From assembly GCA_039621445.1 (NCBI GenBank), contig CP154954.1, positions 38,773,816 through 38,837,815 on the forward strand: 64,000 nt of DNA, written 5' to 3'. The notes under the pieces were generated by a model. That model was not told the DNA's origin. It saw only the letters and a program-made list of their open reading frames with translations, and did not search any database. Within the stretch, counting starts at the first letter, position 1, and each line of letters opens with the position of its first letter. The stretch comes from Euglena gracilis (taxonomy: Eukaryota). A program made the translations under genes and the position numbers. Of the stretch, positions 1 through 22,044 are shown piece after piece.

Positions 1-1410
1 GTCAGCAGGTACCAGGCTTTTTTTTTACCGACCGGGGGGGCACACCCCCGAGGGGGGGGGGGGGGGCAGCCCCGGGGTGCCCGTGGCCGGCTGAGTCCTT
101 GCCAAAAGGGAAAAGAAAATAAAATGAAAATTTTTTTGAGGAAACGGGTCACTGGATACAAGGGCAGGAGAAGGTCCCCCTACCCCCCCCCCCTTGTCCA
201 ACGACCACTGATGTTCGTCTCTGACGGGGGGGGGGGGGGGTCGCTAAAATGGCCAATGTTGGTCTCCGACCAGGGGGTGATGGTGGTCGTTAGACAAGCG
301 GGGTGGACCCCAAGTCAGAGGAAAATTTACCATAGATGGGGGTATATGGCCTTTTTTGGGCTGTTTTTGGCCATTTATGCTATTTCTTGACTACGGTTGG
401 CCACTTTTGGCCAGTTTTGGACATTTTTGGGACACTTTTGGGAATTTTTAGGCATTTTTGACCGCTTTTTGCCATGTTTGGTCGCTTTTGCCACTTTTGG
501 CAACGGTTGGCCACACTTTGGCCCCCTTTGCCCATTTTTGCCAGAGACAAAACAAAAAAACTTTGCATGCGGTCCCTTCACTCCTGGGAGGTTTCCAACC
601 AGGGTTTTTTTTTAAGACCAGGGGGGGTCCCCTCACCCACCCACCCCCTGGGGGAGGGAGAGGTCCCGGGTGACCCACTAAATTTCCCTCCAAAATGGCC
701 AAAAAATCGCGAAAAATGTTAAAAATAGCACCTTTTCAAAATTTTTGATGTCTTCGGCGCCGAAAAATATACCCCACTCCCCGCTGGGGGGACCCCGGGT
801 GGGGACTTGGCCGGACCCCCCCTCCTCGACAGGTGCCAAAAATAGCAGAAAATTTTCTTCCGGCGCACAGCGCCGGAAAAGAGCAATAACACCCCTTTTG
901 CTGACTTTTTGTATGCCAGATGACATGGAAAAAGGGTGATTTTTCAAAATTTTGAGGCAACGAGGATTTTGCAAAAAAGTCCGGAAAAAATTGGCAGGAT
1001 TTCTGTACGCCCCCCCCAGTTTTTTTTTTGGAATTTCCTGTACGGCCAATTTTTTCCCAATCAATTTTTTCGGCTCCAATCACGGGGAGGGGGGGTGGGT
1101 CGGACCCCCCCCCCTACCTCGAAACTGAGGGGGGCCAAAGATTTTTCGATTTCATGGACGGGCAAAGGGCTGGAAATTGGGTCGAAATCGGTCAAAAATC
1201 CCTGATTTTTCTTTGAAAATCGATCCAAAAATGCTCAGTTTTGAATTTTTTTGAACCCTCCTCCCAACGTCTAAGGGGGGTCCGGGCCCCCCCCCCCCGA
1301 CCACCTCACCCCCCTAGGGAGGGACCCCCCCCACCACCTACCTCAATACCGAAGGGCTTCCCATCCATCCCTGGACCCCCCACCCTCCCCCCACACCCGG
1401 GGGTCCAAGA

Positions 1411-1776: not shown

Positions 1777-4700
1777 CTGTGATGCGATGCACCCCAACTC
1801 ATATCGGTTGGGCTCTCCTCCGGTCCAGCCCCCCCCCCCCCTAAACAACGCCGGGGTCAGGCTTCTTTTTAAGGCCCTGGGGGGTCCCCCAACCCAGCCT
1901 GGTGCAGGGGGGGGACCCCTCCCCCCAATAAAATCGGGCTGTTTGAGGCCATTTCCCTTCGCGCTGAAACCCATACCCAGGTTTCTGCTGACTTGAAAAG
2001 AAGCCAGGGTCCAGGTGATCCATTTTTGTCCAGCGCAAAGCACCAGCCGGAAAACGTTGCCCCCCCACCAAAGCGGCCAGAATGTCATTTTTGGGCACTT
2101 GGGGGGAAATTTTGCCAAAAATGCCAAAATTTTGGCACAAAGGGGGGGTCCCCAGTGCTTTTTTTCCAGGCAGTGAAAAGTCTTCGAATCTGGGTTTGAT
2201 TTGCTTCCTTTGCTGGGATGGGCCTTGACCCCTCCCTCTCGGGGCGAGGGGTGCCATTGCATCACAGTCAGCCTGTGGCACGGCCAGGCCAGAATGGGAA
2301 ACACGAGGATTAGGGAGGTCGGCACCAACCCACCCATTCCTTGGGGGTGGCCACCAACGGCTCAAAGGGTTCCTCTTGTCGCGGTCAAATTTGGGGGGGG
2401 GGGTCAAAAAAATGTCCCAAAAATCGGTACTTTGGGTAGACCTTCCAGGGGTGCAGATTTGCCCCCCTCCCGATCCGTCCATGCCCCCCCCACCTGCCGC
2501 CATCCTTTGGGGGAAAAAACCTTTGTGAGGGACTAATTCCATAGGGGGTCATTTTTGGAGGCTGAAACTCATTGTGCCAAAAATAGAGGAAAAGGGGGGT
2601 TTGACCCTTGAAACCCTTGAAAGTTGCATGCAACCCTCCAAAACAAAACGTTCAGGCCATTTCCATTTTGGCCTGGGAGGGGGGAGGGGGGGGTGGGGGG
2701 CTGGCTGGGCAATCCTACGAGGGATGAGTTTGCTTCCGGTTGTGGATGCAGAAAGCGGGGGGGGGGGAAACCAGACCCTCTCCTCTGCCTTCCCTCAAGA
2801 GCTAACCCCAAATTCTCACCCAGAACGTTTGCTGGGAAATCTCAAACCCAATGCCGCTATTGGGCGCTGAAGGTGCCTTTTTTTGTTTGCAACTCAAAAA
2901 AAGGCCCGATTGTTGAAAAAAAAATAAAAAAACACCAGACAAAAACTCAACCCTCCAAGGAGTGCCCAGCCAAGGCTTCCAACCCGCCCTCTGTGGGTTT
3001 GCCCTCCCCAGAGGGATGGCACACCCCAGTCTCCAGGGAATCCCTTGAGCGTCCCCCCCACCGGAGGGGGTCAGCTCAAGAAATTCCCTGCCCCAGGCCC
3101 ATGGGCACCGGGCGCCAGCCCCGGGCTTGGGCTTGGGCTTTGGCTGGCGCCAAGGATCCTAAAAAAAAACAACAAAGAAGAATAAAATTGACCCAGTAAT
3201 ATTTCATACAAACACATGCATGTGCACATCTTGGTACATACAACATATTATCCGGATAAAATGGCAGGAAACAAGAATGACGCAATGACTGAGGGAAAAC
3301 TGAATTAAAAATTCCAAGTTTGGGAAAATTGATGATTCATCAATCTGCAGGTGGCGAGGGACTGATAACAAGTTAAAGCCCCCCCCCTGCCCCAACTCCT
3401 CTCAGCACCCCCCAATTGGCAACCCTGGGCCTTCCCTTCCCAGTCATTGAACATCCAAAAAGAGATTGCTCCGTTTGAAACGAAACTTTGAAAATCTGGC
3501 CTGGCCAAACAAAGATGGGGCGCAATCTCATGTTGTGTGAACATGCACCACCAATGCACATAGACACCATTTACCATCCTTGGGCATCAATTGATGGCGA
3601 TGTCCTCTGTTCACCGCAGCTTGGTCTTCAACTTCCTCCACGCCCGGCGCAGGGCGTTTGGTCGTGTGCAGGGCGCAGCACTGGGGCTGTGCGGCACAGG
3701 GGGGGGGGCATTGAGAAGGATACCCCATCCCAAAGGTAGCCACGCCTGTCTGATTTCAGGACATACTCCCACCAAACAATCAATTTAACTGGAAAAAATA
3801 ACAACAGACTGCTCCAAAAAAGAACAGAAAATTCATTTTTTTTGCGTTTCTTCCCCCCCAAAACCTCTTATTTAATGCATTTTATGCCGTTTTTGTGCAT
3901 ATTGCAAAATCGCATTTTGGAGATTTACTCAACAAATTGGCAAAAAGAGGCCAAAAGAAGCACAAAACACCAGGGAAGGGTTTTTTCTGGGTTTCAGGGG
4001 TCCCCAGCAGGGGTTTTTTTTTTAAGACCAGGGGGTGGGAGCCCCCCCCCAGGGGAGATCCGGGGGACCAATCAATTTCCCCAAAGAATGACCAAAAATC
4101 GTGAAAATGCAAAAAACAGCACCTTGTTCAAAAATTTCCGGCGCCTTCGGCGTCGAAAAGTGCATCCCACCACCCCCTGGGGGGACCCCCCCAGGGGGAG
4201 GGGGGGCTCGGTGTTCAAAAAAAAGCAAAAAGAAGGAAAAAAACAAAGAGAAAGAAGAGAAAAGAAGAATGAAAAAGCAGAAAGATAAAAAAAAAAGAAA
4301 GTAATAAAGAACAGAAAGCACAAAAGAATCAAAAAAAGAAAAAAAAAAAAAAAAAAAAACTAAAAAAAAAACCTATTGCCCAGACCCCCCTGCTCAAAAC
4401 TAACGCTCACTTCCTGCCATGAGGGTCCTGGTTGGTCACACCTTCCCCTGGGGGGGACCGGGGGGGGGGCAGGATTTGATAAGGATTTGATAAGGACAGG
4501 TGGGGGGGTGGTCCGAACCCCCCTGCAGGCCAGGAGGGGGGGGTGGGGGGACAACCCCCGATTTAAACCGCCCTCCTTATATCAAACCCTGGGGGGGTGC
4601 CCGGGGGGGGCGACCGTCATTTTGGAATTTTGGGGTCCAAAAAAAAAAACTCGCACCAAAAACAAAAGCAAATCTGGCAGGACACCGGCGGCCCCGGGGA

Positions 4701-7700
4701 GGAGGTTCGTCCCCCCCACCCCGGACAACGAAACTTTTAAAAAAACGTCTGAATTCACGAACCCTGGGCACTGAACCCTGGCTGGACTGGTTCCTGCGCC
4801 GCAGCATCGGCCGGCGGCGCAGCGGGCTCCGGCGGCGGCGCTCCAGGCTGCGCCGGCGGTGCGGCAGGCGGTGCGGCGGCAAGCCATTGCCTTTGATGGG
4901 AGGGACGGGGTGGCCCGGGTGTCCCATCCCCCCAGCTTCAGCTGAACACAAACCCTGAGTTCCTTCGAAGCCACCCCAGCGCTGGAGGAGGGTCCACCGC
5001 TGAAGGAGGGTTGGCCTGGCTGTTCTGCCGCGAAGTGCAGGAAAGGGGGCTGAGGGGTGGGGGGTTAGGCAACGGCCTGTACGGCAGGGGGGTTGCCGAG
5101 CCCGAGGGCTTCGCGAAACCAGGCGATCACGCCAGGCGGTGGGGGCGGTTGTCGGTCCCGCCAGCACTGGAGGGGGCTGCGGGTGTTGATGAAGGGGGCG
5201 GGGGCTTGGCGGCAGGCTTTTTCCCGTTTGAAACTGCACATGTGCCTTGTGCCTCGGGGGGGGGGGGGAGGGAGGATTCAGAGTGTGGCGGAGGTGGGTG
5301 GGTGGAGCACTGAATGTGGCTTTCGGGCAGGCATTTTGGTGCCAGGCAAAAAGGGCCTGGGCGCTCGGCCTGTTTCCTTTCAGCGCCGGAAACCCAGAAA
5401 AGGGCCGTTTTCGGACAAATTTTAGCCAACGGCCAGGCATCCACCAGTCCACCCAGGCACACCCGGCACAGGGCAGCACTGCGCAAAAAAGAAATGTTTT
5501 GGCAAGGCAATGAATGAATAATTTTACTGAAAGTTCGGCGTGGGACAAGGCGTGTGTGACTTGGCTTAAGGCTTGTAGACAATATGACAAGGGGCGGACC
5601 CCACCCTGCCCAGGATGGGGGTGAGGGTGGTCAGGGATTCCCTTCCACCTCCTGAAGGGTTTTTTTGGGGGTTTCGGGGATTCTTTTCAGCCGTTCCATG
5701 TGCCCCGGGGTGGTGTCAGTGTAGTTTGGAATGGCTGGGAAACCACAAGAACAATTTGGGAGGAGGGAGGGTCACGGCACACCCTGCCCCCCCCCCAAAG
5801 AAGGGGCAAAAGAAGGAAAAGAAGGAAATAAGAAAGGAAGCCTGGGTGCAGGACTAGGGCGTGTAGGCCCAGGTCCCCCAGGCCGCCGGCCGCGATGGCG
5901 ATGAGGTGGGCCACCCGCACGCCGTAGTAGGCGGCGTTGTGCCGCCACGCCTGGTCTCACTGGCGGGGGGGGGGGAGGGGAGGGGAGGGGAGGAAGGGGC
6001 CACGCTCAGGCTTCGTTTAACAAACCCCAAGGGCGGTGCCTTGTGCTGTGGGGTGCCTGCCCACAGCAGGCACCCTGGGGGGGTTCGGCCCCTGGTGCCT
6101 TACAACCCAGCCATTTTCCCTTGCAAATGGCCATTTTCAGGTCCTCCCGACACCGGATGTGCTGTAGCACTGCCCAACTCCAAAACTTGACCCCACCACC
6201 CAGGTGGGGATCAAACATACCCCCCCCCCAACCTGCCCACACCACCCACCCTGAGGGGGGGGGGGTGCGGTGCAGGCTTTTGCTAAGGACCGGGGGGGGG
6301 GTACTGGTTAGCCAATCGGCTAGACACTGGAAAAAGTGGACAAGCTAGACCCCCCTCCCGGCCGGGGGGGGGGGGGTTCGGGGGTCCCCCGGACTGGAAA
6401 TTTTCTTTACTCCGGCGCTGTGCGCCGGAGGAAAAATGAGGATTTTAACAGGTTTTGGGCTGATTTTTGTTCCAAAAAATCCCAAAAAATGGCCAAAAAC
6501 GGGCATTTTTGGCCATTTTTGGGGGTCCCAAAAAAATTGGCTATCCCTGGCTATCACTGGCTATCCCTGCTAGCAGACCCCCAGGGGGGTCTGCTAGAAA
6601 TCCCGCTAGCCAAATTTGGACCAGCTGCAGTCCAGCCCCCAGGGGGGGGGGGTACTGCAATCCCTCAAGCAAAAGCCTGGTGCGGTGCGACTTTCCTCAA
6701 AAAGAAGTCTGGCCACGCTGTCAAATGAAAAGCAAATCAAAACACATTTCCAGCCAGGGGGGGGTGGGGGGATTCTGAGGCAGGGCGTGGCCCACCGTAG
6801 CCGTTGCCTTCGACGAGGGGGCGGAGGCGGGCAGCGGTAGCGTGGACGAGGGCGGCGGCGGCTAGCGGCGGGGGGCCCCTTGTGAGGGGGGAACGATGCA
6901 GCCTTTCCATTTCATTTCATTTAAACAGATGCTGAGAGTCTCGGAAACTGTGAGAAAATGAACTGAGGGGTGGAACTTCCCCCCCCCCCTCCGTTTCCAC
7001 TCTCATCTGGGTCCGAAAAATTGAATGTTCCCTTGAAAACTGACAATCAATCACTCAAGTGCAGGTGACCCCCCCAGGAAGGAATACATCAAACAAAACC
7101 AAATGAAAATTTGGCTGCCGCTGAGACATACCCCAGGGAAACTGATGGACAGACAGCGTAAACTTAAATGGACAGGTGCAAGACAGCGCCAAATCTGAAT
7201 CATGTCCAAAGGGGGGGGGCAAGTGGGAATGCCAACGAGATGGGGTGAGGGCAGGATGCGATATGAAGGCAGGTGGGGGGACGACACCCCCCAGGTGTCA
7301 TCCCAGGTGGAGAGAAAGACCCCCAAGGACCCCTGCCCCATGAAAGCAATGGATCAGGTGAGTGGCTTCGGGGGTGGACCCCGGCACCCCCCCCACCCGA
7401 GTGGGTCCGGGGGGACGACCCCCCCCCCCGTTCTATCGAACTCTGGTTGAGAGACAGTTTGACCAACCCACAGAGACACCCCGATCGCGCTGCATGGGTA
7501 GCGGCGGGGCACCCACAGCAGCCGTGGGCGGAGGTAATCCACCCACAGCCAGCCGTAGGTGCCAGCCACCACTGCCCACGCCAACGCATTGGCCAGGTGG
7601 CTGTCGATGGGCGAGATCCGCGACAGGGGCGCGCCGTTCCTCGGTGGACACTTCTGGCCAGGGGTTTTTTTAAAGACCTGGGGGGGGGGGTTCCCAGGGG

Positions 7701-8543
7701 ATCCACTCACTTTTCCCAAAAATGGCCAAAAATCGCAAAAATGCTGAAAACAGCACCTTTTCAAAAATTGGGGGCAGGGGTTTTATTAAGACCGGGGGGG
7801 AGGGGGTCCCCCCACCCACCCACCCCCTGGGGGGGGGGCCGGGGGGGTCCCGGGGGACCCACAAAAAAATGGCCAAAAAATCGCGAAAAGTGCTAAAAAT
7901 AGCATCTTTTCGGCGCCTGCGGCGCCGAAAAGCATATCCCACCCCCCTCTGGGGGGACCCCCCGGGGGGGGGGGCTCGGCCGGACCCACCCCCCCTCCCC
8001 CCCCCTCCCCCCGGGGGTCCACGACTAAAAAAAACCCCTGGTTGGGGGCTTCGCCGGACCCACCCACCTATCCTCCGGGGGTCCAAGACTGAAAAAAAAC
8101 CCCTGCTTCTGGCCAAACCCCCAAAATGGGTCTGTTAGGGATCTGCAACAACCTGTCAGGGAGGAAAATCACTGCAGAGAAGATTTGCCGCTTTGCACTG
8201 AGAAATACGTTTGGGTGTTCACCAACCAGGGTTGGGGGGGTTCTGTTGTGAAAAAATCCTCATCACCCAGTTTGGGGGGTGCTTTCCAAAAAGGAAATCT
8301 GCCTGGCCACCCAGCGCCGCCCTGCGCATCGAGCTGGCGGCGCCGATGGCGGTGAGGAGGGGCACCAGCCACCAGCAGCAGCCACGGAACTGTGAGACGG
8401 GGGGGAAGGGGAATGCAAGAGCACGTTGGGATAATGCCGGAAAGAAGGGAAGAGTTCATTGTTTTAAAGAGGGAGGGGGGCACCCACCCCCCAAAAAGAA
8501 AGGAAGAGGAGGTCCGGGGGGGGGGGGCCGTGCGTTTATGGGC

Positions 8544-8605
<62 letters not shown>

Positions 8606-11600
8606 CTAATAAAAATAATAATGATAGTCGTCGTCATCATCATAATCACCCCCCCTGATTTTCACAAAAGCGTTCAAGTCGGCAAAAATTGGCAAAATGG
8701 CAGAAAATTTGAACATAAAAATTTGGCTTTGGAGCCAGGGTTCTTTTTTTTTGAGACTGGGGGGGAGGGGGTCGGCATCCACCCACCCACCCCTTGGGGC
8801 GCCCCTCCCCCGGGGGTCCCGGGTTTGCCCGAAAATGGCAAAAATGCTGAAAATTGCACCTTTTCGGTGCCTTTGGCGCTGAAAAAGATATGCCCACCAG
8901 CACCTGCACCCACCAACCCCCCCCCCCCGCCCCTGGGGGGAGGGGATCCAAGGGACCCACCCACCCTACCCCCCGGGGGGGGGGGAGGGGGGGCCAAGAC
9001 AAAAAAAACCCCTGAGTGGAGCTTCCATGACAGGATACCGCCCAAACAACAGATTTCCCTCCAATATGTTTTTTGTTGACTCAAGCAAAGAACTGCTTTC
9101 TCTGATCCGTGCGGGAAGTGCCAGGCTGGCTGGAAACATGATAAATACCCAAAAAAACATTTGGCACCAATTTGCGTTTGCACCACCACGACTCCCAGCT
9201 GGAAGAAAGGTGCTGGCTTCCACCTATTGGCACTTTCCACTTGGAGCACATGGGATGGGGGCACATTGAGGAGGCATCACACACCGTGCGGGTCGGTGGC
9301 CTGTTGTGGCGGGTGGCGTTCTGGGCGGCTTCGCGGGCGGCCACAGCTGGTGCCCACTGTGAAGGGAAAGGGGATGTAAGCTTCAAAATCAGAATCGTTG
9401 GCAGGTGCAGATGCATCTGGAGAAGAATGTTTCCCCAAACCCCAAAGAATGCCCAAGGTTCAAGTGAGGATTTTCTTGGGACCGCAGCAGAATTGGAAAA
9501 GGGATTTTGAATTACGCGTAAATTGGACACCAGATGAATGAAACTTGCAAAAATATTACACCTGGCGGGGTTTTTTTTTTAAGACCGGGGGAGGGGGGTC
9601 CCCCCCACCCACCCACCCCCTGGGGGGGGGGCCCCGGGGGGGGGGCCCGGGGGACCCACACAAAAAATGGCCGAAAAATTGCGAAAAGTGCTAAAAATAG
9701 AATTTTTTCGGCGCCTGGGGCGCTGAGAAGTATATCCCACCACCCTCCGGGGGGACCCCCCCCGGGGGGGGGGGCTCGGCCAGACCCACCCATCCAGTCG
9801 TGGACCCCCCCCCCGGGGTCCACGACTAAAAAAACCCCTGACCTGGCTCCCAAAGTTTTTTCACGCCTGGCAAAATATTTGCCTCAACGTGTCAGAATTT
9901 TTCCCCACAGCCAAAGCCCCCCCCAAATCGGGGCATTTAAGGGCATTTTTTTGAAAAAATTTTGGTGTTTCGCACCAGGTCCCCTTGGGTGGTCAAAAAT
10001 CTTCGGCACTTGTCGGGAGGGGCAGCAGACTCACCAAACCCCCCCGCCCCAAACTTAAAAAATCTCTGGTCAGCATCCACTCACTCCCAGGGTTGCAGGT
10101 GGGCACTTTGGGGGTAAATCAGGGTTCGATATAAGGACAGGTGGGGGGGGGGGTCCGGACCCCCCCCTGCGGGCCAGGAGGGGGGGGGGGGGGGGGGGGC
10201 ACCCCCCCCCCCTAAACAGGTGCGCGGTCAGGGTGGCCGAATTTTCGGCCCGGCGCGAAGCGCCGGGCCGAAAATTTTTGACCCCCCAAAACGACCCAAA
10301 GTGCCATTTTGGGCACTTTTTGGGCAAAAATGTGCCAAAAATGCAAAAAATTTTCGGCGCGAAGCGCCGGAGGAAAAAATTGACCCTTTTTGGGGGGGGT
10401 CAATTTTTGCCCCCGAGGGTCGGTCCGGACCCCCCTTGCAGGTGGGGGGGGGTGGTCCGGACCCCCCCCTGCGGGCCAGGAGGGGGGGGGGGGGGGGGGG
10501 ACACCCCCCCCCACCTAAACCATGTACGCCCTCCTTATATCGAACCCTGGGGTAAATATGGAAGCCTATAAATTTTTCGTCACTTTGCGAAAGCAAGGGA
10601 GCAAGCACGCGTCATTTCTGGCAACTCATGGCCACCCCCCCCCCCCGCATGGTGAGGGGCACAGCCACCCCCCCCCCATGCACCAACCTCACCCCATTGA
10701 AAGACAAAATGAACACACCGGTGCATAGAGGCACCATGGGCACAATGGCACCATGGTGCCATTCACATCCGTCTCCTTCAGTCCAAAGCGATGGTGGTGT
10801 GGCCACGCGCTTAATTTCTCATTTTATTTTTTAATTTTCTCAATTTCTTTTACGTTTGAAGACTTCAGACGCGCCCGGCATCAAACTTCATTTCATAATT
10901 TCCTGTGTTAATGAAGCCCTCAATGTTTTTCACAACGTGTTTCCAATTAAAAGAAAAACTTTTTTTTAAAAAAATAGGGATGGACCAGGGGCTGCTGGGC
11001 CCCAACCCAGAAAACCCCACAGCTGCAGGGCTTGGGTTCTTCCCAGGTCAAAAGAACCCAAACTGTAGAGTGGTGTGCAACACAGGCTGGGGGGATGAAT
11101 GAGCTTGGGGTGGAGATAACCGGGGGGGGGGGGTGGGGGGCCTGGGCAACGGTGATTCACAGCCAACCCATTAGTTGGATTCCATTGAACAAAGCAAATA
11201 AGCGCGTGGGTGGCAGCGGGCGCAGAGGGTGGGGTCGGCCACCGCGTGCAGCGCCTGGAGGCGCTTCGCGGTGGCCTCCTCCGCCGTCTCCACGATCCAC
11301 CAATACTCGCCGGCAGGCTGAGTATTGGTGGAAGGCTGCGATGAAGAGTTTCTTTTTTTTTTTAACTCAAAGAGGGTCTCAAACAGGGACAGCAACAGAG
11401 GTGTCCCCTGAAGCTTTTATGGATTCGGAAGGCACCCAAGGTGGAAAAACTCCACCATATGAAACCCCTCACGCTCACCATTGTTCATCGTCTTCGACCC
11501 TTTCTTCAAACCCCCAAAGTTGTGTCAAATCAAACAACACCCGGCCTGCTCGAGGAGCTGGCGGATGCCGCGGTAGGGGGCGATGACGGGGTTGAAGAGC

Positions 11601-14600
11601 CGCTCAATCCAGGTGGGGGCAGGGTGCAGCTGGCGGTGCCCCCAGGCCCCATTGGAGCGGAGGGGGTTGGGGTTCAGACTGGGGGGGGGCACAAAGCACC
11701 AGGCTGAAAATGTTGCCCCTCCCCCAGAATCGGCCGAAAGAGTTACTTTGGGCACTTTTGGGGCAAAACTTGTCAAAAAAAAGTCCAAAATTGCCTAAAG
11801 AAACCCACAGAAGTGGAAAATTTTGACTTTTGGGTTCTTGGTCAGGACCCCCCACCAGGGTTTGGTATAAGGACAGGTGGGGATGGGGTGGTCTGGATCC
11901 CCCCCTGCGGGCCAGGAGGGGATGGGGGGGGACACCCCCCCACCTTAACAGTGGCGCGGTCTGGGTCACCGAAAAACTTTGACCCCCCCAAAACGACCAA
12001 AAGTGCCATTTTGGGCACTTTTTGGGCAAAGTGTTGCCAAAAAATGCAAAAAATTTTCGGCGCGAAGTGCCATAGGAAAAAATTGACCTTTTTGGGGGGG
12101 TCCCGGGTTCCCCCCCAGCGTTGGTCCGGACCCCCCTGGCACGTGGGGGGGGGGGTGGTCCAGACCCCCGTGCGGGCCGGGGGGACACCCCCCACCTAAA
12201 CCATGTACGCCCTCCTTATATCAAACCCTGCCCCCCCCCTACCACACCACCTCAACAAAAACCGAAGGGCGTCCCATTTCTCCTGGGTACCATGCTTGTG
12301 CTTACCGACCGGGGGGGGGTGGGTGCTATAGGGTGCTTGCCCCTAGCAGGCACACCGGGGGGATAGGGGTCCGGGCCGGACCCAGAAAATTTTCATTGAA
12401 AATGGCCTTTTTTGGGCCCCCGGCGCCTTTGGCGCCAGGGTCGGAGGGGGGTGCCTGCTAGGGGCAGGCACCCCCCAAAACCCTACCCCCCCCCCGAGGG
12501 AGGGGTCGGATTGGGTGCTATGGGGTGCCTGCCCCTAGCACCCACCCCACCCCCCGTGGGGTAGGCACCCGACTAAGCACAAGCCTGCTGGGGACCCTGG
12601 ATGAGGTAAAAATCCCATTGAAAAGGTTTCAAACCCCCTTTTCATAATTTTATACGCTTTTGAGAAAAAATCAGGGGTTTGGGGCTCAAATTCTATCAAA
12701 GAAAAAACTCCTCCAAACCCCATTTTTTGTTTCAATTTGGACCATTTTATTTGTTCTCGCACCAGAAAAATTTTACTCTTCCTCCCCCCTGAGTTTCATT
12801 TCCTCGAAGATTCTAGAGATGGGTCACAAAGTCTGTTGCCCATAAATAGCCACCATCCGCTCGGATCATACATCTCTTTAAGGACCCCGGGGGGGGGGGT
12901 ACTGGGCTAGGGCTAGAAATTTGGGCTGGCTAGAAATTTGGGCTGGCTAGCCCCCCCCCCCGGGGGGGGCTAGGCCCCGGCTGGACCCGAACCGGGGCGA
13001 GCTGGACTGAAATCGGAAAAATGCCCAAAAATGACCTGCAGAACACAGCTTTGAAAAAATGATGCATCTGAAACCCCCCAAAAATGCCCCAAACGCCCCC
13101 CAAACCCCATTTTTGGCCACTTTTGAACACAATTTTTCAAAAAATTTCGGCGCAAAGCGCCGAAAAATTTTGTGCTGGACCCCCCAAAAAAGGGGCTGGC
13201 TAGCTGGGCTAGCAGCACCCCCCCCCCGGGGGGGTGCTGCTGCGGCTGGGCTGGGCCCAAATCGGGGGTGGCTGCAGCCGCCCCCCCGGGGGGGGGGGGG
13301 TCGCAAAACCTTAGAGAGATGTATGGCTCGGATCATCAGCTCAGGGCTCAAAGGCATCATTGTCCACTGACCCTGTCCCTTGCACATCACCCTGGCCACT
13401 CAGGCCAACTGAACAACTGCTTTTTGAGCATATTTTCTCCACTTTCCAGAATTCTGAAATCCCCTTCGGCCATTTCCGGAGGACCTGGGGGGGGCAAAAC
13501 CAAAAAAAACACCCCAATGGGGTCTGTGTGCCGGACCCGCTCCTGCTGCGCGGCGTCGTCGTCCGCTTGCTGGAGGCGCTTGGCGGTGACGACGTTGGCG
13601 GCACGCGGGGTCTGTGGAAGGACAAAAGGGAACAAAGCATAAACGTGGCATAGACGCCACATTTATGGGGGGGAGGTAGCGTGGGTGGGTCCGGCCGAGC
13701 CCCCCCGGGGGGATATGTTTTTCGGTGCCAATTTTTTTTGAAAAGGTGCTATTTTTTGAGCATTTTTTCGCGATTTTGGGGGGATAACTGAGTGGTTCCC
13801 CCAGAGTCCCCCTGGGGGCCTTGCATAAACCCACCCAAATGACTTGGCGGGGCTTCCTCCTGGCAGTGGCCGAATAACTTGGCGGGGGGGGGGAGGGGCA
13901 AATAAAATGGTTCCAATGACTTAGCACCCCCTTTTTAAGGCAAAGTTCCTTCACGATGCTGAAAAAGGTGCCCGAATAACCTGGCAAGGGGGCAGGGCCA
14001 AAAGTTGTTTCCAAAAACCTGGCACCCCGCCAGATTGTCTGGGGGGGGGTTATGCCGGAAAACAGTTTTGAGCAGTTTTTGGGTTGGGGGCCTCGCTGAA
14101 ACAGCACACCAAGCGAGAAAAGAAATGGGGAACCTGGGACTGCCCCACCCAGCCAGGCACCCCCCCCCCACCAGGGGAGATTTTTTCACTTTACATAAAA
14201 ATGCGCTTTTTAATAAAAAAATGCAAAAAAATGGTCAAAAAAAAGACAAAATTTTTGGTTTTGGGGGGAAATCGAGGGCAAGAAAGAAGCTTTCATGATC
14301 AAAAAAAATTCCAGTGAATCCAAAAGAACACCAGGGGAAAAAACCAGGGCTCTCAGGGCTCATGAACAGACTCCACAACCCCCCAAATTGGCAAATTTAA
14401 ACAAAATTTGTCAAAAAATGGCATTTCTTGATGATGGTTGCATGCTTGTGCTTACCAACCGGGGGGGGGGAGGGGGGTGGCTGGGTGCTATAAGGTGCCT
14501 GCCCCTAGCAGGCACACCCCGGGGGGTGGGGCCCAGGGGGGGACCCAGAAATTTTTCATTGCTTGGGGCAGGCACCCCCCCAAAACCCTCCCCCCCCCCC

Positions 14601-17600
14601 TCTGGGGGGGTCAGATCGGGTGCTATGGGGTCAGGCTTTTCCTTCAGGACCCCGGGGGGGGGTACTGGCTGCCAATTGGCTAGACACTGGAAAAAGTGGA
14701 CTAGCCAGACCCCCCTCCCCCCGGGGGGGGGGTCCGGGGCATGCTTGTGCTTACCAACCAGGGGGGGGGGGGGGGTGCTATAGGGTGCCTGCCCCTAGCA
14801 GGCACACCCCCCCCCGGGGGGGGATAGGGGTCCGGGCCGGACCCAGAAAATTTTCATTGAAAATGGCCTTTTCCGGGCCCCTGGCGCCAGGGTCGGAGGG
14901 GGGTGCCTGCTAGGGGCAGGCACCCCCCAAAACCCTACCCCCCCCCCCCCCCAGGGAGGGGGCGTGCCGGGTGCTATGGGGTGCCTGGCCCTAGCCCCCT
15001 TCCCCCCCCCCCCCGTGGGGTAGGCACCCGACTAAGCGCAAGCCTGGTCCGGGGGTCCCCCGGACTGAAAAAAAATTTTCCTCCGGCGCAGCGTCGGAGG
15101 AAAAATGAGTTTTTTAACAGGTTTTGGGCTGATTTTGTTCCAAAAATTCCCAATAATGGCCAAAAACGGGCATTTTTGGCCATTTGGGGGGGTCCCAAAA
15201 AAATTTTGGCGCTTCGCGCCGGTCACTGGAAAAAATTTTCACTAGCTAGCCCTGCTAGCAGACCCCCCCCCCCGGGGCCCACTAGCCAAATTTGGACCAG
15301 CTGCAATCCAGCCCCCTCCCCCGGGGGGTACTGCAATCCCTTAAGCAAAAGCCTGTATGGGGTGCCTGCCCCTAGCACGCACCCCCCCCCCCCCGTGGGG
15401 TAGGCACCTGACTGAGCACAAGCCTGGATGGTTGACGCCAGATATCAGTTTTTGTGTGTGTGTGGCCGAAAAAGTCGTCCCCAATGTCCTTCATTTTTCT
15501 TTCTGGAGGAAAAAGCCAAAATTTGGTTGGTTGGCCTGAGAGGGAGATTTATAAATGGGGGGGGGGGTAAAAGTGGGAGTGGGAGTGGGAGTTAAAAGCA
15601 GTGGACCATTTTCCGCCATGCGCAAAACCTCCAATCAACAACCATTTTGGCAGTTTTCAGCAAAAAATTGTCGAACATCGTCAAAAGCTTTTGAATGATG
15701 GGTTTTTTAGGACCTGGTCCAGACCTGCCGACCCCCTGGGGGGCCAGGAGACCCACCAACCGTTGGGCTAATTTTGGGGACCCAAAATTTTTCGGCGTGC
15801 CAAAAAATGGAGAAAAATGTCTCCTTTCGGGCTTCCCACTCGGACCAACCACCCAAAATCCAGCTAAAATGGGCCGAATGAAAATATCTATATATATAAT
15901 ATCTATGTAAACCCCCCAAATATAACCCCCCCCCCAAATACAAACCCCCCCCAAATATAAAACCCCCCCTGAGGACCTTGAAATCCCGCCCAAATATAAA
16001 ACCCCCCCTCCGGCGCGAAGCGCCGGAAGGAAATTTTTTCGACAATTCTCTCCAGAAATTGTGATTTTTTGGCAGATTTGGGAACACTTTTTACCAAAAA
16101 CATGTCAAAATTGCTCCTTCGCCCGAAAAATGAAGTTTTTGGACCCCCAAGGGTGGGCGTATTTGTGATTTTGGACCAAAAAAATGACTACCGGAGCCCG
16201 CCGGGAAGTTGATTTTTCCGACCAAATATAAACCCCCCCAAATATAAAACCCCCCCTCGGGGTCTTGAAAGTTCCGCCCAAATATAAAACCGGGGGGTTT
16301 TATATTTGGGGGGGGGGGTTATAAAACTCGGACCACCCACCCATACCACCACACCACCCAAAATCCAGCTAAAATGGGCCGAATGAAAATATTTTCCAGA
16401 TAAAAAAAAACCAGCGCAAAGCACCAGAAAATTTTTTGAGGGACTTCACAAAATGAAATTGTATTTTCAGGCAACTTTTTTTTTTCACCAAAAGACGATA
16501 AAAACAGAAATTTGCCAGCGCAAAGTGCCGGGAAAAATTTTTGGGTCCCTGGACCACCCTTCGGCCCTCGGCAGTGATCTTGACGATAAGGAAACCAGGG
16601 GGAAAACAGAAACCAGGGGGTTCAGACTGCTTTGAATTTTCAACCAAATGCACAAAACAGATTGCAAAAGCAAAAGCGCAACACAAGAGGCAAACCTGGC
16701 GGGCGAGGAGGAGGACAACGGCGGCAGCAATGGTGGCCACGGCCCGCGCTGCCCAGCTGCGGAGGGTGGGGCGCGGAGGCTGTGGGGCTGGTCGGCGGTG
16801 CTGGAGGCGTTCCGCTGGAGCTGTGGGGGCGGTGACGGTGAGCTGCGGGCTGGGGTGGACGCTGTCGGCGGTGATGTTGGCGATGATGGCGGCGTAGGGG
16901 GTGGCGTTGGTGGGCTGGAAACGGACGGGGATAAAGCTGCTTGGAATCAGAGGTTTGAGGACCCGGAGGGTCTGGACCATATCATTGCTTGTCGACCCGA
17001 GGGGGGGGGTCATTCTCCACTTTCAAAAAACTAGTCAGTCACTTTCAAAAAACTAGTCAGTCACTTCTTAAAAACCAGTCACCCTTCCTACCCCCCGCAC
17101 GGGGAGGGGGGTCGGTTGCTTTGGCCACTCACCTGAAAAGGCCCCTCCAGCCACTGGGCCAAAAAAAATGGCCAAAAAAACAAAGGATTTTTGGTCAAAA
17201 ATCCAAAAAAAAATTGTGAATGTATATGGGGGCCGTGTACCCCCTCATCCCCCCAGGGGTTTCTTTTTAAGACCGAGGGGGGAGGGGGACACTTTTCCCC
17301 TGAAAAGGCCAAAAAAATCACGAAAAATGCATGTTCAAAAAAAAAGCACATCCCTCCCCCCTCTGGGCGCCCCCCCCGGGGGGGGCTCAGCCGGACCCAC
17401 CCACCCTTCTCCACCCCCTGAAGGTCCAAAACTAAAAAAAAACCCCTGGTCCCCCCCCCGCGTCCTGAACCGCCCCACTACTGTACTGTCCATGCTTGTG
17501 CTTACCAACCGGGGGGGGGGGAGGGGGTGGGTGGGTGCTATAGGGTGCCTGCCCCTAGCAGGCACACCCCCCCGGGGGGGGGGGGATGGGGTCCGGGCCG

Positions 17601-20600
17601 GACCCAGAAAATTTTCATTGAAAATGGCCTTTTCCGGGCCCCCGGCGCCGGGGTCGGAGGGGGGTGCCTGCTAGGGGCAGGCACCCCCCAAAACCCTACC
17701 CCCCCCCCGGGGGGGTCGGATCGGGTGCTATGGGGTGCCTGCCCCTAGCACCCCCCCCCCGTGGGGTAGGCACCCGACTAAGCACAAGCCTGGTACTGTC
17801 ATTTCACTTTTGCTCAATAAAAAAAACCCTTACATTCGACAATGGAAAAATATCCATGCCAGTCGAAGTTTCAAAGGGCAACTGTGCAGCCAAATGCAAA
17901 ATTTTCCGAACGGAGGCAAATACTTTGGGGATAAAATGCAAACATTTTTGAGATAAAATGCAAACAAATTGGTGGGGGAAGTGCAAAAATACATGGTCTG
18001 AAATGCGAAAAATTCAGTTGTTGTCTTCCAAAAAAACAAAAACTGACACCGCTTAAAGCAGCCTCAGGAGGGGGCAGTGGAAGTGGAAAAGTAGCGGGGG
18101 GTGCGGAAGGCCATTCGAGGCTCACTGAGGGGCTCTGGCAGGGGCTCATCGAAAGGCTCTGGCTCGGGCTCGTCGAGGGGCTCTGGCTCGGGCTTGTCGA
18201 GGGGCTCTGGCTCGGGCTCGTCGAGGGGCTCTGGCTCGGGCTTGTCGAGGGGCTCTGGCTCGGGCTCGTCGAGGGGCTCTCGCTCGGGCTCGTCGAGGGG
18301 CTCTGGCTCGGGCTCGAGGGGCTCTGGCTCGGGCTCGTCGAGGAGCTCTGGCTCGGGCTCGTCGAGGGGTTCTGGCTCGGGTTCATTGAGGGGCTCTGGT
18401 TCAGGCTCATCAAGGGGCTCTGGTTCGGGCTCATCAAGGGGCTCTGGCTCAGCTTCGGCCTCATCGAGGGACGGTGGCTCAGCCTCATCAAGGGGCTGTG
18501 GCTTGGCCTCGTCGAGGGCCTGGGGCTCCGGCTCAGCAAGAGACTCTAACTCCTGCTCCTGGAGGGACTCTGGCTCAGGCTGGGTCTCATCGAGGCGTTC
18601 AGGTTCGGCCTCGTCGAGGGGCTCTGGCTTGGCCTCAGCAAGGGGCTGGGCCTCCAGCTCAGCAGGAGGCTCTGGCTCCGGCTCATCGAGGTGCTCAGGG
18701 TCCAGGAGGGCTGCAAGGGGCTGCGGGGCCGGGAGGGCCAGCCGGGCTGGGGGGGCCGGGAGGGCCAGGTGGACTGGGGGGGCCGGGAGGGCCGGCCGGG
18801 CTGGGGGGGCCGGGAGGGCCGGCCGGGCTGGGGGGGCCGGGAGGGCTGGCCGGGCTGCGGGGGCCGGGAGGGCCAGGCGGGCTGGGGGGGCCGGGAGGGC
18901 CGGCCGGGCTGGGGGGGCCGGGAGGGCCGGCCGGGCTGGGGGGGCCGGGAGGGCCAGGTGGACTGGGGGGGCTGGGAGGGCCAGGGAGGCTGGGGGGGCC
19001 GGGAGGGCCAGGCGGGCTGGGGGGGCCGGGAGGGCCGGCCAGGCTGGGGGGGCCGGGAGGGCCAGGCGGGCTGGGGGGGCCGGGAGGGCCGGCCAGGCTG
19101 GGGGGGCCGGGAGGGCCAGGCGGGCTGGGGGGGCCGGGAGGGCCAGGCGGGCTGAGGGGGCCGGGAGGGCCGGCCAGGCTGAGGGGGCCGGCCAGGCTGA
19201 GGGGGCTGGGGGGGCCAGGGAGGCTGCGGGGGCCGGGAGGGCCGGCCGGGCTGGGGGGGCCGGGAGGGAGGGCCGGCCGGGCTGGGGGGGCCGGGAGGGC
19301 CGGCCAGGCTGAGGGGGCCGGCCAGGCTGAGGGGGCTGGGGGGGCCAGGGAGGCTGCGGGGGCCGGGAGGGCCGGCCGGGCTGGGGGGGCCGGGAGGGCC
19401 AGGCGGGCTGAGGGGGCCGGGAGGGCCGGCCGGGCTGGGGGGGCCGGGAGGGCCAGGCGGGCTGAGGGGGCCGGCCAGGCTGAGGGGGCCGGGCAGGCTG
19501 AGGGGGCTGGGGGGGCCAGGGAGGCTGCGGGGGCCGGGAGGGCCGGCCGGGCTGGGGGGGCCGGGAGGGCCGGCCAGGCTGAGGGGGCCGGGAGGGCCGG
19601 CCAGGCTGAGGGGGCCGGCCAGGCTGAGGGGGCTGGGGGGGCCAGGGAGGCTGCGGGGGCCGGGAGGGCCGGCCGGGCCGGGGGGGCCGGGAGGGCCGGC
19701 CGGGCGGAGGGGGCCGGGAGGGCCGGCGGGCTGGGGGGGCGGGGAGGGCCGGCCGGGCTGAGGGGGCCGGGAGGGCCGGCCGGGCTGAGGGGGCCGGGAG
19801 GGCCGGCCGGGCTGAGGGGGCCGGGAGGGCCGGCCGGGCTGGGGGGGCCGGGAGGGCCAGGCGGGCTGAGGGGGCCGGCCGGGCTGGGGGGGCCGGCAGG
19901 GGGGGCCATGGGGCCGGAAGGGCCGGCAGGGGCCGCTGTGGGGCTGGTGGGGCTGGGAGGGCCAGCTGTGGGACGTGGATAAGGCTGCTTCATGCAAACA
20001 TGCTTTTGCTTACTGACCGGGGGGAGGGGGGTGGGTGGGTGCTATAGGGTGCGGGGTGCCTGCCCCTGGCAGGCACACCCCCCAGGGGGGGGGTAAACCC
20101 CCCCAAAATAAGACCGGGGGTCCATTTCATGGGTCGGTTGCTGGAGAGCCCGAGGGGGGGGGGGTCTTGTTCATGGGCAGGGTCCATTTTATGGATTTTT
20201 GCTGGAAATTTTTTCGACACCCCAAAATGTCCAAAAATGCCTCTCCAAATACCAATTTTCGAAAAACTTGGCACTCGCGCCAGACAAATAGGAGAAAATA
20301 TGGTGAATTGTGTGAAAACAGTCCCAAAATGGCAGATTTGCCCCCCCAAATGTCCCATTTTTCAAAAATCCAGCGCTTCGCACCGGCAGGGGGGGTCTTA
20401 TTTATGGGGGGGTCCATTTCATGGATTTTTGCTCGGACTGACCGGGGGGGGGGGTGGTCTTATTTTGGGGGGTCTATTTTATTGGGGGGGGAATTACCAT
20501 GCCCCCCCCCCCCCCTAGTTAGTCACCCCCCCCTATTAGTCACCCTTGGGCCCCAGGCAAAAAAATTTTTTTCGAAGGGAAATATTTTTCTTTAAAAAAC

Positions 20601-22044
20601 GCCGAATTTGGCCATCGGATTTTTTTTGATGGTTGCCATCCATGAAAAGTGCCCTGGAATGCCCAAAAACAACCTTGAAACCCCCAAGAATTGGGGCAGG
20701 GGGGGCAAAATTTGGGTCTAAATTGACCCCCCCCCCCCCGAGTTAGTCCCCCCCCTATTAGTCACCCTTGGCCAAATTCCCCTCCCAAGGGGGTGACTAA
20801 CTAGGGGGGGGGGGCACGGAATTTTGGGGGGGGTTAGGGGTCCGGGGGGATTTTTCATTGAAAAAATGGGCTTGTCCGGACCCGCGGCGCCTTCGGCACC
20901 AGGGTCGGAGGGGGTTCCTGCTATGGGCAGGCACCCCCAAAACCCTGCCCCCCTGGGGGGGGGGCGGATCGGGTGCTGTGGGGTGGGCACCCGACAAAGC
21001 ACAAGCCTGCATGCAAATGTTGCCTTCAGAAAGACCCCCTCTGATTTGGCAGGGCCTGGGACCCCTGAAAGAAGCAGTTCTTTTGGTTTAAAAAAAGACA
21101 GCAAGAAAACTTCGGGGGGGGGCATGGCTTTGGCTGCCAGAAAGGTGGCCAAATGCATGGTTGGTGGGACCATGATGACAACAAACATGCACACCACACG
21201 GTTCGATTTCTGGCTCATTTGCAAAAAAAAGATAACCTGAATTGTGGATATTGTCTGAGAGCTCGTGGTTGTGTGGAATTACTGAGGCAGCCCTGGGCGG
21301 GGCAGGGGAGAAGGGCGAAGGGGAGAGGGGCGGGGAGAGCGGAGGGGAGGGTGAATTTTGGAGGGGGTGGGGGGAGGAGGGATTGCTGCCACCATGCAAT
21401 CGCTCCACAAGTCGGACAGAACTCATTAGAATGGCAAAACCGGCATCCTGGCGAGGAATGTGTGCAAATACACCCGGTTTTATCACCAAAAGTGTGCCCA
21501 AATCGCCCTTGTGGTTGTGTCATGGATTGCGCACATCATGGACATTTTCTCTGGTGGAGGTCTTTACAATTTGCATTGATTTACATCACAATCTGTGAGA
21601 TCCACCCAGGAGCAATTGTGTGGCTTGGGGCCGGCGGTCACCGGAGTGGGAGGGCGGGGAAGGGCGGCGCCGCCGGTGATCACCAGGTGATGCACCGGGG
21701 CGGCGGGGAGGGCGAATTTTGGAGGGGGGAGGAGGGATGGCTGCCGGCATGCAATTGCTCCAAAAGTAAGACAGAAACTCATTAAAATGAGGAATGGAAA
21801 TATCAGGTACACAATACACAACACCAGGTTCACAATGGTACACCAGGTTTTATCGCCAGAAAGTGTACCCAAATCCCTTGGTGGTTTTGTCATGGATTGC
21901 TCACAATATGGATATTTTCCCTGCTGGAGGTCTTCCAGTGAGAGATCCACCCCAGGAGCAATTGTATGGCTTGGCGGTCACCAGGTGATCGCCAGGCACT
22001 GGAGCACTGGGGCGCTGGGGGGGACTGTGCCACTGTACCGGTAG
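1411..22044 (-). CDS. Multi-exon gene (at least 19 exons, about 1,300 aa, N-terminus not found): Pro-rich and EPLDEPEP repeat region followed by about 5 hydrophobic segments; unknown function, probable membrane or surface protein
   Basis: Hand-joined exons: 22044-21972, 21742-21626, 21387-21299, 19974-18070, 16926-16696, 13611-13530, 11637-11552, 11308-11243, 9356-9285, 8389-8309, 7653-7496, 6893-6793, 5940-5848, 5207-5083, 4874-4770, 3691-3615, 3158-3094, 2279-2230, 1776-(1411). All 18 junctions stay in frame using GT-AG or the paired-end 3+5 rule. Exons are GC3-rich and mostly lack the long homopolymers of the introns. The 18070/16926 link and the last three exons are less certain. Confidence 0.75.
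2230..2279 (-). CDS. Probable exon [16 protein letters not shown]
   Basis: CTG-GCCGT acceptor; GGG|GTCAAG donor; phases fit. Confidence 0.5.
3094..3158 (-). CDS. Probable exon [21 protein letters not shown]
   Basis: Poly-T AG acceptor; GGG-CAG donor; phases fit both neighbours. Confidence 0.5.
3611..3691 (-). CDS. Exon [26 protein letters not shown]; ends at TGA 3613-3611 or splices at CG|GTGAAC (3615)
   Basis: CTG-TGCCG acceptor; high GC3. Confidence 0.75.
   Translation of the reverse strand, partial: HSPSAAPCTRPNALRRAWRKLKTKLR
4770..4874 (-). CDS. Exon [35 protein letters not shown]
   Basis: In frame; exact donor ambiguous among three phase-0 RNN-CAG sites. Confidence 0.7.
5083..5207 (-). 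CDS. Exon [41 protein letters not shown]
   Basis: Donor GTA-CAGGCCGTTGCC pairs over 12 bp (2 G-U) with GGCAATGGCTTG-CCGCC; splicing avoids an in-frame TAA. Confidence 0.85.
5848..5940 (-). CDS. Exon [30 protein letters not shown](Q)
   Basis: Very strong GC3 bias; donor ACC-CAG-GCTT pairs with AAGC-CTG-CCGCC. Confidence 0.85.
6273..6679. mobile_element. hAT-like MITE family F1 (TIR CAGGCTTTTGCT)
   Basis: Exact 8-bp TSD GTGCGGTG at 6265-6272 and 6680-6687. Confidence 0.9.
6793..6893 (-). CDS. Exon [33 protein letters not shown](D)
   Basis: In frame by the 3+5 rule; donor GGC-CAC-GCCCTG pairs with CAGGC-GTG-GCGGC. Confidence 0.8.
7496..7653 (-). CDS. Exon [52 protein letters not shown](P)
   Basis: Acceptor CTG-GCCAG supplied by a MITE end plus TSD; donor ATGCAGC pairs perfectly with GCTGCAT at 6902-6896. 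Confidence 0.85.
7659..8105. mobile_element. hAT-like MITE family F4 (TIR CAGGGGTTTTTTT) at an intron/exon junction
   Basis: Exact TSD CTTCTGGC at 7651-7658 and 8106-8113; related copies near 600, 4008, 8736, 9565, 17255 and 58070. Confidence 0.9.
8309..8389 (-). CDS. Exon [27 protein letters not shown]
   Basis: CACAG acceptor; GGC-CAG donor; hydrophobic segment. Confidence 0.8.
8545..8621. repeat. (TAA)n microsatellite
   Basis: Seen directly. Confidence 0.95.
9285..9356 (-). CDS. Exon [24 protein letters not shown]
   Basis: CACAG acceptor and GTGTGT donor, phase 0/0. Confidence 0.8.
10120..10549. mobile_element. hAT-like MITE family F3 (TIR CAGGGTTCGATATAAGG)
   Basis: Exact TSD GGGTAAAT; related copies at about 11856-12230 and 4470-4591. 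Confidence 0.9.
11243..11308 (-). CDS. Exon [22 protein letters not shown]
   Basis: GAG-CAG-GC / GC-CTG-CCGGC intron upstream; GCG|GTGGCC donor. Confidence 0.85.
11552..11637 (-). CDS. Exon [28 protein letters not shown]
   Basis: Non-canonical introns on both sides, in frame; high GC3. Confidence 0.85.
12291..12587. mobile_element. MITE family F2 (CATGCTTGTGCTTA...TAAGCACAAGCCTG)
   Basis: TSD CTGGGTAC / CTGGGGAC (7/8). Confidence 0.85.
13530..13611 (-). CDS. Exon [27 protein letters not shown](H)
   Basis: CACAG acceptor; donor ACA-CAG-ACCCCATTGG pairs with CCAATGGGGC-CTG-GGGGC. Confidence 0.85.
14441..15426. mobile_element. Three-level nest: F2 (14441-15426) containing F1 (14632-15355) containing F2 (14740-15046)
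   Basis: Three exact 8-bp TSDs: GATGGTTG, TATGGGGT, GTCCGGGG. Confidence 0.92.
16696..16926 (-). CDS. Exon [15 protein letters not shown]...[17 protein letters not shown] (hydrophobic segment)
   Basis: Strong GC3 bias; CAG|GTTTGC donor. The start could instead be the AG acceptor at 16914 or the ATG at 16980. Confidence 0.8.
17491..17792. mobile_element. MITE family F2
   Basis: Exact TSD GTACTGTC. Confidence 0.9.
18070..19974 (-). CDS. Giant repeat exon: (ALPAPPARP)n then (EPLDEPEP)n
   Basis: Stop-free frame absent from the ORF track for most of its length (no start codon). Reads VPQLALPAP...[22 protein letters not shown]...[22 protein letters not shown]. In-frame TGA at 18066-18064 if unspliced. 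Confidence 0.8.
19999..21009. mobile_element. F2 MITE carrying further nested elements
   Basis: Exact TSD CATGCAAA; internal AAATAAGACC and TTAGTCACC repeat elements. Confidence 0.85.
21299..21387 (-). CDS. Exon [29 protein letters not shown]
   Basis: Paralogous to the previous exon; donor GCC-CAG-GGCTGC pairs with GCAGCC-TTA-TCCAC. Confidence 0.7.
21626..21742 (-). CDS. Exon [38 protein letters not shown](K)
   Basis: In frame on both sides under the 3+5 rule; part of a duplicated exon-intron module. Confidence 0.7.
21972..22044 (-). CDS. Exon [24 protein letters not shown](K)
   Basis: Pyrimidine tract + CACAG acceptor; donor AGC-CAT-ACAATTGCTCC pairs with GGAGCAATTGC-ATG-CCGGC at the next acceptor. 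Confidence 0.65.

Follow-up and report, generated by a model that had tools for sequence, protein, structure and literature searches.

Miniature transposons with 8-bp target-site duplications and the splicing register of nonconventional introns in Euglena gracilis

[quoted passage not shown] The nonconventional introns of euglenids are cut 3 nt before a CAG-like triplet and 5 nt after its complement; removal of such an element in this register would take with it 8 nt, that is, one copy of its duplication, and would restore the message as it stood before the insertion. We posit that the MITEs, the 8-bp stagger of their transposase and the 3/5 register of splicing belong together, and that nonconventional introns descend, most probably, from old insertions of MITEs, their duplications having since decayed, a reading to which we give a probability of roughly 0.6.

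The splicing code has been published as 5'-N3CDG-/-CH'GN5-6|R (Nomura et al. 2025, PMC12501133; Milanowski et al. 2014 and 2016). Knock-ins described in PMC12501133 show a donor spacer of strictly 3 nt and an acceptor spacer of 5 nt, where 6 nt is tolerated and lengths of 4, 7 and 8 perform poorly; the CAG/CTG triplets plus about 12 bp of pairing are required, loss of pairing abolishes splicing, synthetic introns of 50 bp that combine CAG, a stem of 12 bp and CTG undergo splicing, and a purine is preferred as the first exon base, with one C-intolerant case. The same study counts 71.8% of E. agilis introns as nonconventional and finds direct repeats at the junctions of 84.4% of introns, these 'slidable' introns being excluded from its motif work. 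Y/R is also described as preferred at either junction, 5' and 3' alike (PMC6221363).

The idea of a transposon origin is not ours. A review speaks of 'TSD-like' junction repeats and places the terminal inverted repeats (TIRs) at +4..6 and -8..-6 (PMC11282704). A MITE origin was proposed in PMC3935182, at a time when, by its own statement, euglenids had no known transposon; an earlier note on this stretch had mentioned such a proposal, and it is indeed in print. PMC12501133 discusses a MITE-like origin as a suggestion only, and recent papers still call both the origin and the removal mechanism of these introns unknown. A literature search that did not extend to most subscription journals and supplements found nothing equating 3+5 with an 8-bp TSD, and no description of CAG...CTG MITE families in a Euglena genome. 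Already known, then, are the 3/5-6 code, the hypothesis of a MITE origin and the repeats likened to TSDs; new, so far as that search shows, are the equality of spacer sum and TSD length, and the families themselves, with the proviso that the 3+5 = TSD idea may be implicit in the thinking of the 2024 review's authors.

Inverted-repeat elements and their 8-bp duplications

The window holds 21 curated TIR elements, counting those found by eye and the nested copies, and 17 of these lie inside positions 2280-21971. Their 8-bp flanking repeats are exact in 13 cases, match at 7/8 positions in four, at 6/8 in three and at 5/8 in one. The termini are CAG...CTG in 13 elements and CAT...CTG in five, with CAT...ATG, CAA...TTG and GGT...ACC occurring once each; the two TIRs agree at 10-14 of 14 positions in 20 curated elements, and at 12-14 in the young MITEs. 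Four families could be delimited, Fa with three copies, Fb and Fc with four each and Fd with five, measuring 122-459 bp when nested inserts are excluded. The earlier note had reported about ten CAG/CAT...CTG MITEs with mostly exact 8-bp duplications, and the present census, with the controls that follow, bears it out.

Both the length of the duplication and its position at the element boundary are specific. Among the 97 CAG...CTG pairs of the window whose TIRs agree at 12 or more of 14 positions, five are bordered by 8-bp flanks without a mismatch and two more by flanks that agree at 7/8, against some 0.002 exact cases expected at a per-base match probability of 0.25. When repeat lengths of 2-12 were tried on the first 15 elements, 11 gave zero mismatches at length 8; apart from these, a single exact match turned up, of a trivial 3 nt. 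A broader control set of 209 CA[G/T]...[C/A]TG pairs, again with TIR identity of at least 12/14, has flanks matching at 7/8 or better in 12 pairs at the true register and in 0-3 at boundaries shifted by 1-4 nt; there are nine exact repeats of length 8, whereas lengths 4-7 give 0-4 and lengths 9-12 give none. In 20 block shuffles, about 13 pairs arose each time, with a single match overall. Only length 8, and only the true register, is enriched.

A scan for TIRs and TSDs made free of any motif (6,404 pairs) did not separate the registers, with 30 exact cases against 19-25 in shifted ones; it is uninformative because palindromic flanks and G/C homopolymer runs dominate it. The G+C content of the window is 45-60%, with long runs of G and of C. 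Long inverted repeat clusters at 26260-28310 and 32180-33600, based on the palindrome TCGGCCGA/GACTAGTC, are the source of many false calls of this kind.

That these elements are insertions is proven by nesting together with a paralogous empty site. At 14441-15426 an Fd element (TSD GATGGTTG, 8/8) holds an Fa element at 14632-15355 (TSD TATGGGGT, 8/8), which in turn holds a second Fd at 14740-15046 (TSD GTCCGGGG, 8/8), each of the three levels thus carrying its own exact duplication; such a nest points to repeated recent bursts and to a preference for landing in other elements. An intact Fd at 17491-17792 (TSD GTACTGTC, 8/8) contains the empty site, with TATGGGGT present once. If 3 nt, the Fa element and 5 nt are excised from the nest, the 30-mer core of the resulting junction is found, identical, in this paralogue. 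The arithmetic of the earlier note, 3+5 = 8, therefore holds at the level of DNA, where a cut in the splicing register restores the sequence of the intact paralogue.

One element was also folded as RNA. In the Fc copy at 10120-10549 (CAGGGTTCGATATAAGGA..., TIR 14/14, TSD GGGTAAAT 8/8), the terminal helix begins at the very ends of the element and leaves the flanks unpaired, with a z of -9.5 and none of 100 shuffles as stable.

The other elements are spread through the same region. An element of 705 bp beginning CAGGCTTCG lies at 6007-6711 (TSD GCCACGCT, 8/8), inside the predicted intron between the eighth and ninth exon segments of the gene discussed below, and holds a nested Fa at 6273-6679 (CAGGCTTTTGCT...AGCAAAAGCCTG; TSD GTGCGGTG, 8/8). 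A member of Fb at 7659-8105 (CAGGGGTTTTTT...AAAAAACCCCTG; TSD CTTCTGGC, 8/8) adjoins the predicted seventh exon segment and contains another Fb at 7775-8040 (TSD 7/8). Further copies are an Fc at 11856-12230 (TSD 7/8), an Fd at 12291-12587 (CATGCTTGTGCTTA...TAAGCACAAGCCTG; TSD 7/8) and a short Fc-like element of 122 bp at 4470-4591, whose flanks match at 7/8 within a G run. An element with CAT...ATG ends, Fe, lies at 12867-13325 (TSD GCTCGGAT, 8/8), and an Fd-like element with nested inserts at 19999-21009 (TSD CATGCAAA, 8/8), just upstream, on the minus strand, of a proline-rich repeat frame. Decayed copies were recognised at 7252-7445 (6/8), 8736-9014 (6/8), 17254-17448 (5/8) and 22174-22305 (6/8). 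Outside 2280-21971 lie an Fa in inverted orientation at 60551-60934 (TSD GTCTCAAC, 8/8) and an element with an 8-bp TSD and CAA...TTG ends at 43791-45198.

Candidate introns in a local orphan gene

On the minus strand between 5869 and 16932, periodicity of G+C at third codon positions (GC3) and open frames predict an orphan gene of about nine GC3-rich exon segments, near 16932-16696 (S1), 13611-13530 (S2), 11637-11552 (S3), 11308-11204 (S4), 9356-9285 (S5, doubtful), 8389-8328 (S6), 7618-7478 (S7), 6878-6796 (S8) and 5955-5869 (S9). Three of its predicted introns, all on the minus strand, qualify as candidates for the nonconventional class under a combined requirement: at least 9/12 Watson-Crick terminal pairs, cuts that obey the 3/5 rule, and GC3-rich open frames that are joined in phase. 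The S2-S3 candidate at 11638-13529, ACA-CAGACCCCATTG...CAATGGGGCCTG-GGGGC|A, has end pairing of 11/12 and contains three later MITE insertions. The S3-S4 candidate at 11309-11551, GAG-CAGGCCGGGTGT...ATACTCAGCCTG-CCGGC|G, pairs at 9/12 and has a fold z of -2.3; the S6-S7 candidate at 7619-8327, GCG-CAGGGCGGCGCT...GGCGCGCCCCTG-TCGCG|G, also pairs at 9/12 and contains the Fb element at 7659-8105. All three conform to the published code, with N3-CDG, a complementary CH'G-N5, a purine at the exon start and a pairing zone of about 12 bp.

If these introns began as insertions, the two 8-mers in the register of the rule should retain some likeness. They agree at 5/8 positions in the S2-S3 candidate (CCGGCACA/GGGGCACC), at 5/8 in S3-S4 (TCCTCGAG/CCGGCGAG) and at 4/8 in S6-S7, and in none of the three does another register do better than length 8. 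Over 13,103 CAG/CTG pairs, the local null has a mean of 2.1, with P(>=5) = 0.047 and P(>=4) = 0.145. A comparison of these 8-mers with background had been put forward earlier for the whole genome; run locally, it favours the three candidates and fails for a fourth, discussed below. We regard these identities as modest evidence of decayed duplications, and we infer that the three introns arose from MITE insertion.

At the S7 site, the two TSD copies of the Fb element, at 7651-7658 and 8106-8113, read GCCAGAAG on the minus strand; the downstream copy (minus strand) would be split into 5 nt of intron, ending in AG, and 3 nt of exon at the start of S7, and the site is therefore compatible with both a conventional AG acceptor and the nonconventional rule.

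How far can reading frame help? A scan for stems of at least 9/12 with GC3-rich flanks gave 48 rows over the window, in which the spacer sum needed modulo 3 was 2 in 26 rows, 1 in 12 and 0 in 10; on the minus strand of the gene region the corresponding counts were 11, 5 and 4 of 20. Neighbouring exon segments are linked by three of the rows, which are the three candidates above. Allowing G-U pairs produced 579 pairs on the plus strand alone, too noisy for use. Splice-aware scoring by dynamic programming reached 57.9-61.8 for spacer sums of 2, 5, 8 and 11, with two to three nonconventional introns, as against 49.6-50.7 for other sums and 49.6 for conventional introns only. The model is crude, omitting the possible exon S5 and favouring a weak GT donor over the intron paired at 11/12, and we use its spacer grid alone. 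Listing all CDG/CHG pairs gives dozens of rule-compatible ones per exon junction, in and out of phase; with a motif so permissive, frame restoration by itself proves little. The earlier note had described 13 introns that restore the reading frame; three candidates emerge from our analysis, the 13 junctions could not be reproduced, and the bare motif is too common to carry such a list.

This brings us to the possibility that the list was largely an artefact of the permissive motif, and that the ordinary spliceosome splices this gene with few or none of the proposed junctions in use, which we consider a real if minority prospect. The many rule-compatible pairs at each junction speak for it, as does the score of 49.6 out of 59.8 units still attained by the conventional-only model. 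A conventional-looking intron, CAG|GTTTGC to a C/T-rich tract and CACAG|, phase 0/0, is predicted at 13612-16695, and GT-AG introns are predicted at 8390-9284, 6879-7477 and 5956-6795, the latter two as candidates (all minus strand). The acceptors at 13612, 9357, 8390 and 5956 consist of a C-rich tract followed by CAG, an arrangement said to set the conventional introns of E. gracilis apart (PMC11170887), and the S3-S4 candidate can also be read as a GC-AG intron, likewise in phase. Against an artefact stands the pair 13526/11643 in the S2-S3 candidate, where end pairing of 11/12 coincides exactly with the borders of two GC3-rich segments, in phase, at a junction for which no good in-phase GT donor was found.

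A proposed link between duplication and splicing register

The mechanism that we favour would run as follows. A transposase, presumably encoded outside the window, would make an 8-bp staggered cut, and non-autonomous MITEs of several related families with CAG...CTG ends would spread by it. Once transcribed, an element would fold, its ends forming a helix closed by CAG/CUG as the published code demands; the splicing machinery would cut 3 nt 5' of CAG and 5 (sometimes 6) nt 3' of CTG, and what is excised would be the element plus 8 nt, or one TSD copy, leaving the pre-insertion message. Both cuts would fall between bases 5 and 6 of the TSD, and the Y|R at the two junctions would therefore be identical. 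Base 6 would become the first base of the exon, and the purine found there in 14 of 17 TSDs across the window (p = 0.009; 12 of 17, p = 0.09, in the opposite orientation) matches the purine preferred at exon starts; base 1 of the TSD is G in 11 of 17.

With time, an intron would keep its helix, which is under selection, and lose its repeat, as the local candidates do. A fresh insertion would be expected to look like the intron of the E. agilis gapC gene, present in one strain only and hence recent, with eight-nucleotide direct repeats that are longer than those of other introns (PMC4770533).

We think it somewhat better than an even bet that this splicing amounts to a precise excision at the level of RNA, in which the 3/5 stagger is matched to the 8-bp stagger of the transposase, and fitting insertions are erased in either orientation and in any codon phase. 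To judge from their termini, Fa, Fb and Fc have TIRs that hold every cis feature, and these families would conform to the code in either orientation; Fd, with CAT...CTG ends, would not, the third base pair of the triplet motif being broken. Elements of these families, we infer, are spliced out when they land in an exon. The earlier note had gone further and supposed restoration at any site, which overstates the matter, since the exon preferably starts with a purine and one case does not tolerate C. A bolder extension is that the nuclease may recognise the same ends as the transposase, and may even descend from it.

Several observations weigh against our reading. In E. agilis, the signature is missing from 38.8% of annotated nonconventional introns, and 87,843 show no repeat at their junctions (PMC12501133), and the authors who described the eight-nucleotide repeat of gapC attribute it to double-strand-break repair (PMC4770533). 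At least four introns of the orphan gene look conventional from their sequence, and the gene is no showcase of 13 nonconventional introns; the earlier note had held that transcripts using GT-AG sites would count against it, and what we predict is a mixture, with these four or more on one side and the three candidates that fit the 3/5 rule on the other. A fourth stem-defined candidate, at 7555-6859, has an 8-mer identity of 1/8 and needs another frame of S8. The frame test fixes the spacer sum modulo 3 only and rests on two introns chosen by the optimiser; rows of the stem scan share ends, and pairs recur on both strands, making the 11 in-phase rows of 20 suggestive and not independent. The ends of the candidate introns are not recognisable copies of the young MITE families. 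Finally, all 13 elements with exact TSDs lie in predicted introns or between genes, and none is demonstrably exonic; exons make up about 2% of the window, and the absence of young exonic MITEs is therefore uninformative either way.

Perhaps, then, the agreement is a coincidence: the MITEs would be ordinary passengers of introns and spacers, the introns would stem from break repair or from mutated conventional introns, and the CAG/CTG triplets and the number eight would agree by chance. Among DNA transposons, the TSD varies in length over a range of only about 2-11 bp, and a chance match in length would be expected about one time in ten; CDG/CHG triplets are very frequent in the DNA of the window. 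The non-coding position of every exact-TSD element here, and the break repair already invoked in print, point the same way. We nevertheless find coincidence unlikely, since four independent features agree (the position of CAG/CTG, the required helix at the ends, spacers that add up to 8 and a Y|R shared by the two junctions), and to these are added the eight-nucleotide repeat at the youngest known intron and the residual 8-mer identity at three local candidates.

Least probable, in our estimation, is a host filter, in which a structure-measuring RNA excision came first and only those transposon families that fitted it multiplied within genes, a survivor effect in which the stagger did not set the register: elements with 8-bp TSDs and non-fitting ends are indeed present (CAT...ATG, CAA...TTG, GGT...ACC and the CAT...CTG family), and E. 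gracilis Merlin elements with 8-bp TSDs and GG ends (PMC8101967) show that a stagger of 8 bp does not depend on CAG ends, but the order of events is not separable in this window, and for present-day sequences the filter makes the same predictions as the MITE account.

Superfamily, surroundings and wider meaning

To which superfamily might the CAG families belong? An 8-bp TSD is typical of hAT elements, whose target consensus is nTnnnnAn and whose TIRs start with YARNG; P, Merlin and some other superfamilies likewise generate 8-bp TSDs. The elements here share with hAT MITEs the 8-bp duplication, short TIRs beginning with CAG and an excess of T at TSD base 2 (9/17, p = 0.007), and CAGGG ends agree with YARNG. 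They differ in that A is not enriched at base 7 (5/17, p = 0.40) and that CAGGC and CATGC ends do not fit; nor was a transposase or autonomous partner found in the window, none of 10 frames picked by eye from the 62 open reading frames of at least 130 aa in 22000-64000 having a Pfam family above threshold. One sub-threshold match among those ten, to DUF7791 (E = 0.061), was dismissed. The hAT assignment suggested earlier thus keeps its duplication length, its CAG ends and the T at base 2, lacks the A at base 7 and a transposase among the frames tested, and on such sequence features membership is a reasonable guess, unproven.

Merlin transposons of E. gracilis have TSDs of 8-9 bp and terminal 5'-GG (PMC8101967), a description that does not fit the CAG- and CAT-ended families, whose ends do not start with GG. 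Only the element at 23813-24117 does so (GGTACTTG..., 305 bp, GGT...ACC ends, perfect 14-bp TIRs, TSD GTTCCTTC 8/8); it fits the published Merlin-type ends and not the CAG families.

The surroundings of the elements add a few observations of their own. No homologue was found for the exons of the orphan gene: a word-index protein search with exon S7 returned no transcript-derived protein, Pfam recognised no family in seven exon translations, and a full HMMER scan gave two matches, both to long internally repetitive proteins with scores summed over 12-17 repeats, which we dismissed as spurious. Rfam gave 0 matches on the window. One of the gene's predicted introns includes an ATA/AAT microsatellite of 28 copies at 8544-8626. 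An open frame of 641 codons at 18064-19989 on the minus strand, with its stop at 18064, is built of tandem repeats with periods of 24 and 27/54/81 nt, Pro/Ala/Gly-rich units among them, and much of its span is open in all three frames; it is probably a separate gene for a repetitive protein. The adjoining segments 21240-21600 and 21600-21970 look like diverged tandem duplicates, with common blocks ...GGAGGGAT.GCTGCC..CATGCAAT.GCTCCA.AAGT...

How does the proposed system compare with what is known? With the published Euglena nonconventional introns it shares CAG at +4..+6, CTG at -8..-6, the terminal helix, the purine exon start and the junction repeats; it differs in that, in the portions of those papers available to us, a MITE origin is only a hypothesis, and MITE families, an 8-bp TSD and the equation of 3+5 with a TSD do not appear.

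Introner elements, reportedly treated by Huff et al. 2016, offer a parallel in outcome. With their removal, too, some or all of one TSD copy is lost along with the element, whereas the removal is spliceosomal, with one splice site supplied by the element and the other co-opted from the TSD or the target. Those of Micromonas, Aureococcus and dinoflagellates are TIR/TSD DNA transposons that become introns on insertion (PMC11282704). Here, by contrast, an RNA helix would be the reference from which the cuts are placed, independently of GT-AG and in either orientation, and the product is reported as a circle.

The maize Ds element, said by Giroux et al. 1994 to act as a de novo intron, is likewise a hAT-type non-autonomous element removed from the transcript when it sits in an exon; its removal differs in using cryptic spliceosomal sites, imprecisely and without exact restoration of the message. 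Bulge-helix-bulge introns, which are cut by the tRNA-splicing endonuclease and joined by a ligase, resemble the present case in that the distance from a helix determines where cleavage falls, and in that a circular intron is released. We know of no such endonuclease linked to Euglena nonconventional introns, and the comparison is an analogy only, for how a 3/5 stagger could be measured.

The origin and removal of euglenid nonconventional introns have been an open question since the 1990s. If the splicing register is the duplication, the question of origin becomes one that can be counted, through the identity of two 8-mers in a single register and an edge in repeat length at 8. Annotators would have a guide for placing 'slidable' junctions, and one mechanism would cover the origin of most Euglena introns, some 70% of which are nonconventional, the 'slidable' repeats, the shared Y|R and the eight-nucleotide repeat at the youngest intron. 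Euglena would then possess a non-spliceosomal counterpart to introners, one that would account for how its genome tolerates a massive invasion of its genes by transposons.

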